DNA of 64,000 nucleotides from Eledone cirrhosa (taxonomy: Eukaryota), in the NCBI GenBank assembly GCA_964016885.1, contig OZ024740.1:31868001-31932000 (forward strand), in the 5' to 3' direction. Both the position numbers and the translations under genes were made by a program. The notes beneath the pieces were generated by a model. It saw only the letters and a program-made list of their open reading frames with translations. It was not told the origin of the DNA and did no database searches. This document shows positions 24,123-61,448 of this stretch, piece by piece (within the stretch, counting starts at the first letter, position 1; every line of letters starts with the position of its first letter).

Positions 24123-24424
24123 GTGTGTGTGTGTGTGACAGCTCACACCTATGTGTGTGTGTGACAGCTCACACCTATGTGTGTGTGTGACAGCTCACAC
24201 CTATGCAGGTTTAGCTGGCCTCCTCCAAGGTATATCTCGTTGGAGGTGTCTTGGGTAATTTAATGATAGGGACCCCAGTCCTATCATCTCATTTATACAG
24301 CTGAGTAAACTGGAGCAATGTGAAATAAAGTGTCTTGCTCAAGGAAACAACACATCACCCAGTCCGAGAATTGAACTCACAATCTTTTGATTGCAAGCCC
24401 AATGCTCTAACCACTAAGCCATGT
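24123..24424 (-). mobile_element. tRNA-derived CORE-type SINE, (CA)n-tailed variant with triplicated tail
   Basis: Near-identical to 11141-11388; unit (GT)nGACAGCTCACACCTAT present three times. Confidence 0.88.
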
Positions 24425-24639
24425 GTGTGTATGTGTGCAGGTGTTTGTATGTTGGGAGTTGGGGTAGACACAGGCATGGCCATATCATTCATAGGTTGAG
24501 TTTGAAACCATGTAGTTCCAGGCTGAATCCCACAGAGTACCATAACCTGAGATGACTCAAAGCCTTATGAGTGAAGTTTAATAGGCTGAAGATGTGTTGA
24601 AGCCCATTATGTGTGTATATATATATATTTGTATTTACA

Positions 24640-37134: not shown

Positions 37135-37180
<46 letters not shown>

Positions 37181-37186
<6 letters not shown>

Positions 37187-37770
37187 TAACAGATTAAAGT
37201 TTAAGCAAAGAATCAATGCTTTCACCCTTAACGGGATCTTCTGAAACTAAAAAAAAATCAGTCTGTGAACGCAGAAGTAAATATTTCGAAAAACATGTGT
37301 ATGTATATATTTAATAACCTTTGTCATTTTCGTTCAACTAATTTATTTACATTATTCTTAACTCCGAAGCCGAGAATCATTCGGTTTCCTAAATAGAATA
37401 TTAGTCTAATGACTCGGTTTATACCATAAACGTGGTTTTGTCTTTACGTGTAATTGTTTTCATCGCTCCACATAACGACATATTATCTTCACTTTTTTCC
37501 ATTCATTGCCAGGGAACGACTTCACGAACCAAAGTATCATCTTCCTGTTTTTCTCCGGTTGCAATGTTTTTCGAAATATTTACTTCTGCATTCACAGATT
37601 GATTTTTTTTTAGTTTCAGAAGATCCCATGAAAGCAGCGATCTTTGCTTAAACTTTAATCTGATATTTTAATAAATATTTGCTCTAGGGTTCTTATATAT
37701 TTGGTATATGTTTATCCTTATCGAGCCCTTTTCGGATTTTAGTCTTCATATTTATTATTATTACTATATA
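37181..37770. mobile_element. Fold-back non-coding element with hammerhead-like motifs (family H), probably Penelope-derived
   Basis: Inverted arms 37181-37298 and 37564-37671; downstream part homologous to 51180-51300. Confidence 0.7.
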
Positions 37771-37835: not shown

Positions 37836-38177
37836 CATTTCATCATCATTTCATTTTACGTCCGCTTTTCCCTGCTTGCAAGGGTGGGACGGGAACTGAT
37901 TTTGGCTTGATTTCTACAGCTGGATGCCCTTCCTAACACCAACCTCATTTACAGTGAGTGCTGGGTGCTTTTTTGCCGTGGCACCTCCACGACCACTTTG
38001 CAGTGGAATGATAGGGACCCCAGTCCCTATCATCTCATTTCTACAGCTGAGTAAACTGGAGCAATGTGAAATAAAGTGTCTTGCTCAAGGAAACAACACA
38101 TCATCCGGTCTGAGAATTGAACTCACAACCTTTCGATTGCAAGGCCAATGCTCTAACCACTAAGCCATGTGCCTCCA
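37836..38177 (-). mobile_element. RTE-tailed CORE SINE, full length
   Basis: Reverse complement of 61101-61448. Confidence 0.92.
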
Positions 38178-50815: not shown

Positions 50816-51068
50816 AATTATGTGTGTGTGTGTATTTGTATATGTGCATGTGTGTGTATTCTGGTTTTTAGAATAGGAACACATCATCCCTGAATATTGT
50901 AAGAGGCAGCTTAAAGGGCTTTTGTCAGGAAAGACGTCTGGTCATAAAACACTGCCTTCATATGTCCCCTTGGACCCATGCCAGCATGGAAATATGGACA
51001 TAAAAATGAATGATATACATACATTCATACATACACACACACAAACATTTATTTATATATATATATCA

Positions 51069-51212
51069 TTAGCACAGATTAAAAGTTTAAGCAAAGAATT
51101 TGTACTTTCACCTTGAGTTTCAGAAGATCCCGCTTGAGGGTGAAAGCAGGAATTTTTTGCTTAAACTTTTAATATGTGCTAATAATATTTGCTCTATGGG
51201 TTTATATATACC

Positions 51213-51249
<37 letters not shown>

Positions 51250-51300
51250 ACCCTTATCGAATCCTCTCTGGATTTTGGACTTTGTATTTATTACTACTAC
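51069..51300 (+). mobile_element. Family H short fold-back with a complete hammerhead-like motif at 51116-51167
   Basis: Homologous to 37181-37770. Confidence 0.7.
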
Positions 51301-51307
51301 ACATATA

Positions 51308-51641
51308 TCATTTCATCATCATTTCACGTCCGCTTTTCCCTGCTTGCAAGGGTGGGACGGGAACTGATTCTGGCTTGATTTCTACAGCTGGATGCCCTTC
51401 CTAACACCAACCTCATTTACAGTGAGTGCTGGGTGCTTTTTTGCCGTGGCACCTCCACGACCACTTTGCAGTGGAATGATATGGACCCCAGTCCTATCAT
51501 CTCATTTCTACAGCTGAGTAAACTGGAGCAATGTGAAATAAAGTGTCTTGCTCAAGGAAACAACACATCACCCTGTCTGAGAATTGAACTCACAACCTTT
51601 CGATTGCAAGGCCAATGCTCTAACCACTAAGTCATGTGCCT
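51308..51641 (-). mobile_element. RTE-tailed CORE SINE, full length
   Basis: Reverse complement of 61101-61448. Confidence 0.92.
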
Positions 51642-52135
51642 ATTTCATAGTCTTTTCTTCATCGTTTTTCTAAAATCATTATCATTATTATTTACTCAAT
51701 CAGAGGTTTATAAGCTATTCAGTGAATTTCAGGAAAACAGCAGTTATATTTTGGAACAAAGTTTAATTTATCTTCTTGTTCCATTCAAAAGATGCTACAA
51801 GCAATTAAAAAAAATAAAAGAATATACAAATTTCTTTTGTAGTCCTGCTTATTTTCATTACCACAGATTTTAAGGCAGTACTGAAGTAATAACAGGCTAT
51901 TACCATAGCACTAGGACAGTAAGACAATATCAGGGTAATAAGAAATGAAGAACAGCTTGAATTGTACTGTCAGACAACAAAGTATCAGTGATGAAAAACG
52001 TTTTTCGAATATCTTGTCAGTGCCAGAATTTGTATTAAAAAAAAAAAAATTAAAGATAGAGAGAAATAGAAGAGTAAGCCTTATTGTGAGCACCTCACAA
52101 ATGTAGCAGGTAGATGCCTTGATAGTGTTTGAAAT

Positions 52136-55136: not shown

Positions 55137-55470
55137 ATCATCATCATCATCATCATCATCATTTTACGTCCGCTTTTCCCTGCTTGCAAGGGTGGGACGG
55201 GAACTGATTCTGGCTTGATTTTTACAGCTGGATGCCCTTCCTAACACCAACCTCATTTACAGTGTGGGCTGGGTGCTTTTTTGCCATGGTACCTCCACAA
55301 CCACTTTGTAATGGAATGATATGGACCCCATTTCTACAGCTGAGTAAACTGGAGCAATGTGAAATAAAGTGTCTTGCTCAAGGAAACAACACATCACCCG
55401 GTCTGAGAATTGAATTCACAACCTTTCGATTGCAAAGCCAATGCTCTAACCACTAAGCCATGAGCCTCCT
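55137..55470 (-). mobile_element. RTE-tailed CORE SINE
   Basis: Reverse complement of 61101-61448 with a small internal deletion. Confidence 0.9.
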
Positions 55471-61100: not shown

Positions 61101-61448
61101 TGGAGGCACATGGCTTAGTGGTTAGAGCATTGGCCTTGCAATCGAAAGGTTGTGAGTTCAATTCTCAGACAGGGTGATGTGTTGTTTCCTTGAGCAAGAC
61201 ACTTTATTTCACATTGCTCCAGTTTACTCAGCTGTAGAAATGAGATGATAGGGACTGGGGTCCCTATCATTCCACTGCAAAGTGGTCGTGGAGGTGCCAC
61301 GGCAAAAAAGCACCCAGCACTCACTGTAAATGAGGTTGGTGTTAGGAAGGGCATCCAGCTGTAGAAATCAAACCAGAATCAGTTCCCGTCCCACCCTTGC
61401 AAGCAGGGAAAAAGCGGACGTAAAATGAAATGATGATGAAAATGATGA
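61101..61448 (+). mobile_element. tRNA-derived CORE-type SINE with RTE-like tail, full length
   Basis: A box TGGCTTAGTGG, anticodon-like loop CTTGCAA, B box GAGTTCAATTC, CORE-like centre, tail shared with RTE 3'UTRs, (ATG)n end. Confidence 0.93.

Follow-up and report, generated by a model that had tools for sequence, protein, structure and literature searches.

A hammerhead motif with an A4 core in the pseudo-LTR of a Hydra-clade Penelope-like element from Eledone cirrhosa

A 64 kb stretch of the Eledone cirrhosa genome (the window) contains a motif with the layout of a type I hammerhead ribozyme (HHR), in which position 4 of the core is A (A4; core CAGAAGA) in place of the canonical U (U4; CUGA). 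The locus raises the question of which element carries the motif, whether A4 is the mutation of one copy or the state of a family, and what an RNA with such a core might do. A sequence-only reading of the window had proposed a non-coding retro-element family. We followed up that proposal in the window and in the whole genome (3.0 Gb in 1,796 contigs).

Copies in the window and the parent element

A descriptor with position 4 left free gave three type I hammerhead matches in the 64 kb window (C3 at 51121 on the plus strand, 37617 on the plus strand, and 37243 on the minus strand), all three of which have the CAGAAGA core. The flagged motif reads as the sequence-only reading had given it, with three stems around the core in the type I layout, a U-U at the base of stem II, and predicted cleavage after CUU (51162/51163). 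The further copies of the fold that it had listed were recovered by the descriptor, and the 3′ half that it had placed on the minus strand is an inverted partial copy at approximately 51066–51114. The motif that it had described at 37612 with a reduced stem II is present, but the copy (37612–37654, plus strand) is a deletion mutant of stem/loop II and not a natural variant. Two insertions account for these four items, each consisting of a direct and an inverted end (Table 1). Both are truncated copies, and the flagged one belongs to an old subfamily. Neither an ORF remnant of the element nor a tandem HHR repeat unit was found in the window.

Table 1. Features of the two insertions in the window.
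Feature	Position	Strand	Remarks
Type I hammerhead motif, A4 core	51116..51167	+	Old subfamily; about 89% to old-subfamily copy L367
G at 5′ junction of flagged copy	51115..51115	+	C or T in uninterrupted copies
PLE 3′ tail after HHR	51168..51300	+	Shared ATTACTAC/(TA)n end; internal (TA)n tract expanded
Inverted partial copy (HHR 3′ half, beginning of tail)	51066..51114	-	Makes the fold-back
Inverted end of second insertion	37174..37296	-	Intact A4 motif at 37198–37248; about 89% to young copies
Direct 5′-truncated copy of second insertion	37341..37764	+	About 270 nt of 3′ UTR, HHR, tail

The stretch 51066–51184 folds into a hairpin of −55.9 kcal/mol (z −10.6), and the hammerhead fold in this fold-back lies approximately 14 kcal/mol above the minimum-energy fold. 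The hammerhead fold was the minimum-energy fold in none of the window copies folded alone and was not the predicted minimum in any of the 11 sequences folded, a canonical relative (the sister family described below) included. The flagged copy itself is probably inert. A 330-bp SINE-like repeat, with copies 91–97% identical at 51311–51645, 37838–38174, 61104–61441, and 55153–55467 of the window, comes after both HHR insertions; this proximity probably comes from a shared preference for (TA)n targets and not from a single composite element. An Rfam tRNA-like match at 24356–24427 overlaps a partial copy of the same repeat.

Thirty related loci share a common 3′ end at (TA)n, have varied 5′ cut points, and often carry an inverted end. 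An RT/EN ORF was reached by walking upstream through a 5′-inverted copy; a first upstream walk had reached a different repeat joined to L005 and was discarded. The motif and its flanks run unbroken into a 713-aa ORF of a Penelope-like element (PLE), with RT followed by a C-terminal GIY-YIG-type EN. The frame (P0001) contains RWR, DKT, YRDD, CxCX5C, VY..YIG, and CxH, of which VY..YIG was read from the sequence. Among the 20 longest ORFs, DKT was found in 20, CxH and YRDD in 19 each, CxCX5C and CxxC in 17 each, and RW[RK]A in 12, and a Pfam scan of the ORF gave 0 families. The A4 motif is present in 17 of 20 long-ORF copies (within the fetched stretch) and a U4 motif in 0. The HHR lies approximately 930 nt after the stop codon, approximately 190–200 nt before the start codon, or at both places, with the ATG 204 nt after the HHR start, and a scan of five long-ORF loci with our own covariance model (see below) gave no further HHR within the unit. 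The ORFs of the long copies are 95.9–98.4% identical to that of copy L124, and a 74-aa piece of the RT/EN ORF has at least 150 genome matches at 97–100% identity; the element is recently active and very abundant. The 3′ UTR is approximately 930 nt long in the young subfamily and about half that in old copies, and one young copy shows a tandem duplication of approximately 135 nt (79% identical) in this region (L085:1612–1888).

The ORF motifs match the description of the Hydra clade in PMC8557442, and we therefore place the element in this clade, an assignment based on ORF motifs. Like the Hydra-clade PLEs described there, e.g., Hydra-1_Obim, the element has a single ORF with RT and then a C-terminal EN, the motifs DKT, CxCX5C, and CxxC/CxH, (TA)n targets, pseudo-LTR tandems, and 5′-inverted copies, all of which were found in the family. 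Close to their 3′ end, the Hydra-clade elements also have a type I HHR, in many cases with a U after A9 and a U before GAAA. Unlike the present CAGA, their core is ctga, and their stem III is a palindrome with a loop of 1–3 nt, whereas that of the A4 family has 4–6 bp and a loop of 5–9 nt. With a stem III of this length and a real loop, the motif is not a minimal, dimer-type hammerhead. The A4 family further differs in having RWR for RWK, a unit of approximately 3.3 kb, and an HHR sequence other than that of Hydra-1_Obim. A Naiad element with a cryptic HHR was ruled out, as Naiads have an N-terminal EN and DKA, whereas the EN is C-terminal and the motif is DKT here. Judged from these sequence features, the element is an autonomous, protein-coding Hydra-clade PLE with the motif in its pseudo-LTR, and the suspected link to Penelope is thus borne out.

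State and conservation of the core

The core pattern has 23,593 exact matches with A4 in the genome and 280 with another letter (approximately 99% A4). The reversed pattern gave 0 matches, which indicates that the A4 pattern is not due to chance. The first 100 non-A4 matches divide into 39 G, 33 T, and 28 C, a split that looks like scattered mutation. A canonical subfamily, considered on account of 21 CTGA matches, was rejected: 14 of the 15 inspected are fold-back junctions, which mimic CTGA because TTC-A-GAA reads TTC-T-GAA on the inverted arm. In runs under two other organism labels, the contigs covered the motif with no listed difference, and a run under a third label listed no difference at position 4. 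Together with the long-ORF copies, the counts agree with the earlier claim of a family fixed for A4.

The closest other family found in the genome (the sister family, 51% aa) has the canonical core at the same two places. Its HHR resembles that of the A4 family by eye in the U-U, the 3-bp stem II, and the long loop III, and the stem letters differ. Among 79 metagenomic Hydra-like loci, 56 have a descriptor match, and the motif is U4 in 55 of the 56; the lone exception is the lowest-scoring match, an A4 match inside an ORF (L209) that is probably due to chance. One metagenomic locus carries an extra C4 motif. All 26 Hydra rows of File S2 in PMC8557442 have the ctga core. On this comparison of sequences, A4 is the master state of the family and is derived; a CTGA consensus or a loss of the stems was not seen.

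The other core letters (C3, G5, A6, G8, A9, G12, A13, A14, A15.1-U16.1, and H17) are kept, with equal column majorities in the young and both old groups, and A4 is found with both A7 and U7. The three-stem type I layout with the ends joined in stem I is present, and only the U4 of the canonical hammerhead core is missing. By its motifs the element files under the Hydra clade, and the A4 motif appears to work like a PLE hammerhead.

We compared the column majorities of a young set (18 stretches from 17 copies) and an old set (30 copies chosen by the upstream flank alone, minus L383, which has no HHR region, plus three via the EN region). Between the young copies and the 22 old copies with A7, 0 of 36 core and stem positions changed, compared with 5 of 14 loop positions and 91 of 265 flank columns, gap columns included (core and stems vs. 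flanks, Fisher p = 1.1e-6). Of 51 positions, five changed, each of them one of the 15 free positions (p = 1.3e-3). Against the 10 old copies with U7, a group that is defined by N7 itself, 1 of 36 changed, and this is a CpG tie that keeps a G-U pair. The claim that loops vary while stems and core hold is borne out. Fourfold sites of the ORF differ at 59 of 125 between old and young copies. Loop II keeps its G...A ends in all subfamilies seen. The unchanged core and stems beside changed flanks indicate, at the level of sequence, purifying selection on the A4 motif. No change was seen either in the nine bases after stem I, which can pair with an upstream strand and thereby extend stem I; a general constraint near a promoter may look similar, and an internal promoter, if present, may mean that part of the conservation acts on DNA.

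Within 30 copies of the family, the covariation score was 0.061 and was reached by 391 of 500 shuffles; the stems are invariant and do not covary. The covariation check that had been proposed thus gave nothing above shuffles. Stem cells are paired at 89% and those of slid controls at 25–49%, a comparison that favours a structure drawn from the same sequences. A distal extension of stem I with a U-rich bulge is 86% paired across the 30 copies.

No hammerhead was among the Rfam matches listed for the window, the A4 copies, or the canonical sister, and the matches listed (150 of 260 for the window) were microsatellite and hairpin look-alikes. The prediction that standard searches would miss the motif therefore holds, but the miss says nothing about A4, because the canonical sister was missed too at the gathering score. 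We built our own covariance model from 32 U4 metagenomic relatives. It gave four weak matches in the window, of which the A4 copies rank first (16.9 bits) and third (13.7 bits); the flagged copy scored 13.7 bits with an E value of 0.42. A natural U4 copy of the family scored 25.7 bits, and the sister scored 32.1 bits.

Transcript start, cleavage, and possible function

Among 30 copies selected by their tail, 16 begin inside the motif, 10 of these at its 5′ side, and 0 of 30 start at the predicted cleavage site. The native T at position −1 of stem I is missing in 2,734 of 20,692 matches, and G stands there in 56 of the first 100, compared with 985 matches and 21 of 100 in the next-base control. 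Of 30 A4-family loci inspected, G was found in 19, in every case at a junction; in 5 of these 19 loci, the inverted arm could itself end in this G. The corresponding counts in the sister family are 714 of 2,530 matches, with G in 87 of 100, and approximately a quarter of its matches carry an extra G at −1. In the sister family, stem I is preceded by a TATA box at −30, and no clear one was found at −30 in the A4 family; an internal Inr/DPE promoter has been described for Penelope of D. virilis (PMC2377424). Untemplated 5′-end G in L1 and SVA has been attributed to reverse transcription of the cap (PMC4859970). The excess of junctions with an extra G directly before stem I suggests that capped transcripts begin at the first base of the HHR (the A of stem I). 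The flagged motif would then begin at the transcription start, and the G before it is, by the family pattern, a candidate reverse-transcribed cap G, of which a single copy gives no proof. Our searches of article texts turned up no PLE described as starting where stem I begins. With the extra-G footprint, PLE start sites can be mapped cheaply from genomic sequence, and in two families the predicted starts make a hammerhead the outermost 5′ part of the RNA.

In regards to cleavage, 795 of 39,443 tail matches lack U17, and 30 of them inspected by eye comprised 18 point mutants, three deletions, and nine junctions. The canonical sister likewise shows no cleavage footprint (30 vs. 2,279; loci not inspected). 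This genomic footprint therefore cannot separate an active from an inactive HHR.

We somewhat favor the reading that this pseudo-LTR HHR is an attenuated and possibly protein-assisted ribozyme, located where the capped transcript is predicted to begin. The uncleaved capped RNA would be translated and also used as a template, on which RT would prime internally at the AT-rich tail and run to the cap. This route could yield short inserts of G, HHR, and tail, fold-backs such as the flagged copy, and longer copies. The predicted cleavage site lies 46 nt from the start, and cleavage there would take off the cap; a slow core is plausible because it would let the RNA be translated and copied beforehand. 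A4 may contribute by adding a pair to an early hairpin that hides GAAA. A start at stem I would leave the upstream strand of the extended stem I in the 3′ copy alone, which may be the more active copy.

Published data are compatible with such an attenuated ribozyme. The Anolis PLE has an RT with internal initiation and an HHR that needs protein to cleave, and it can insert in vitro without HHR catalysis (PMC11167929). A natural viroid HHR with U4C is described as weak in vitro and sufficient in vivo, and a basal U-U in stem II as tolerated (PMC3088659). A second Hydra-like family in this genome, described below, is fixed for C4. Several results count against the favored reading: single mutants of the CUGA turn have low activity in a type III HHR (PMC9901934), the family shows no internal covariation, the hammerhead fold is nowhere the predicted minimum, the model from canonical relatives scores the flagged copy low, the A4 pair in the early hairpin gains only approximately 0.6 kcal/mol over natural U4 copies, and the sister, which is also predicted to start at stem I, keeps U4. 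Cap protection or attenuation thus does not require A4. In a more specific and tentative version, PLEs with a capped start at the first base of the HHR turn the ribozyme down via position 4 (A in one family and C in another of this genome), and decapping that is delayed or triggered by protein would switch the RNA between translation and reverse transcription. If this version is true, position-4 variants are a working class of natural hammerheads that CUGA-based searches have missed.

The main alternative, which we consider less likely, is that the A4 hammerhead no longer cleaves and that its fold and core letters are kept because the RT/EN protein, or else a factor of the host, binds them at the 5′ end of the RNA. 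Such a loss would agree with the pairwise mutagenesis of a type III HHR, in which every single mutant of the CUGA turn, those of U4 included, has low activity (PMC9901934). It would also agree with the dispensability of HHR catalysis for in vitro insertion of the Poseidon PLE (PMC11167929), with Naiads that have no canonical HHRs (PMC8557442), and with the tens of thousands of copies that the family reached without a backup HHR. However, only catalysis-free positions (N7 and loops) changed between the subfamilies while every catalytic letter was kept, and the sole deviation in two families falls at position 4, for which a functional variant from nature has been described.

Full activity of the A4 core, with compensation through A7, the U-U pair, or a contact of loop II with the stem I bulge, seems improbable. 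The long purifying selection, the paired stem I extension with its U-rich bulge, and the kept G...A ends of loop II would all fit full activity. The occurrence of A4 with both A7 and U7, on the other hand, leaves no obligatory covariation between positions 4 and 7, and double mutants rescue no CUGA-turn mutant except for the 3–8 swap (PMC9901934).

We consider it very improbable that the conserved letters are an internal Pol II promoter on DNA, with the hammerhead a decaying relic inside it. The motif does begin at the predicted start site, and Penelope has an internal promoter (PMC2377424). Yet the conservation extends to +51 and tracks the core and stem positions of the HHR, a one-base difference in loop II between subfamilies shifts everything downstream relative to +1, and the sister has other stem letters at the same place. 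In the old subfamily the start reads TCAGT, which we take to resemble the Initiator consensus and which would favor a promoter.

Finally, the version of the sequence-only reading, in which retrozyme-like or fold-back elements without coding capacity replicate on their own, can be dismissed. Most copies are indeed short and non-coding, but they are truncations at varied points of an autonomous PLE, many copies of which keep a long ORF. The motif and its flanks run on into the adjoining 713-aa RT/EN ORF, the fold-backs are the usual 5′-inverted PLE ends, and the tandem HHR units of a non-LTR retrozyme are absent from the window.

Relation to known hammerheads and to other families in the genome

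Hammerheads in PLE pseudo-LTRs, including solitary and opposite-strand copies, are already described (PMC4209133, PMC6765202, bioRxiv 10.64898/2026.07.22.740005). The minimal PLE hammerheads of Cervera and de la Pena 2014 (PMC4209133) resemble the present motif in being type I, in occurring in both PLTRs with an extra base after A9, and in having many solitary and opposite-strand copies. They differ in that the A4 family is not minimal or dimer-type and in that the core variant reported there is U3-A8 and not at position 4. Among the natural core variants of Perreault et al. 2011 (PMC3088659), the U4C viroid variant and the tolerated U10.1-U11.1 mismatch are the nearest parallels; those variants are single isolates, whereas A4 is fixed in more than 20,000 copies across subfamilies. 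U4A occurs 0 times in the main text of that article. The Anolis Poseidon PLE PAc (Frangieh et al. 2024, PMC11167929) shares internal RT initiation and an uncleaved template, and the lack of reads at its cleavage site fits the copy ends of the A4 family. Unlike the A4 element, PAc belongs to another clade, its ORF starts inside the HHR, and no core variant is named in the portion of the article covered. The non-LTR retrozymes of bioRxiv 10.64898/2026.07.22.740005 have a type I HHR related to PLE pseudo-LTRs and are described as non-coding tandem repeats, whereas the A4 element is autonomous with truncated copies.

A natural family-fixed U4A core was not found in the article texts searched (those of PMC11014351 and PMC3376415 included), and a prior mention in figures or supplements is possible. 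According to PMC8557442 and PMC11167929, it is not clear which role PLE hammerheads have. The A4 family, the U4 sister, a C4 family, and the rare natural U4 copies of the A4 family form a natural experiment in one genome and in the same sequence setting, and the A4, U4, and C4 families side by side make this role directly testable. Cleavage by the A4 form would lengthen the list of viable natural cores and mean that CUGA-based surveys undercount genomic HHRs, and a lack of cleavage would show that the conserved fold has a non-catalytic role.

The C4 family is a second Hydra-like family (L617–L628, e.g., L628:1500–3017; also L089, L136, L137, L188, L191, and L514) whose type I hammerhead is fixed for C4, with 5,661 pattern matches and C4 in 98 of the first 100. 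Its stem III is palindromic with varying letters, and in L628 an ORF 45% identical to P0001 lies downstream of the motif. The sister family (L283–L292) has a 758-aa frame and a microsatellite-rich 3′ UTR of 2.4–4 kb. A third Hydra-like family (L293–L296, 42% aa) carries a canonical terminal HHR and an internal duplicate in which the cleavage-site base is G17. Further HHR motifs with canonical or U3-A8 cores occur in the flanks of L148, L159, L166, L168, L175, L179, L201, and others, and the genome is rich in HHR families. At L096:1460–2750, a different PLE (YVDD-type RT, 450-aa open frame) lies directly behind a Hydra-type fragment and is followed by a tandem array of approximately 468 bp. An array of approximately 12 sister-family HHR ends with a spacing of approximately 1.07–1.1 kb was found at G000:C1:83679755–83691713 and is a possible retrozyme-like tandem.
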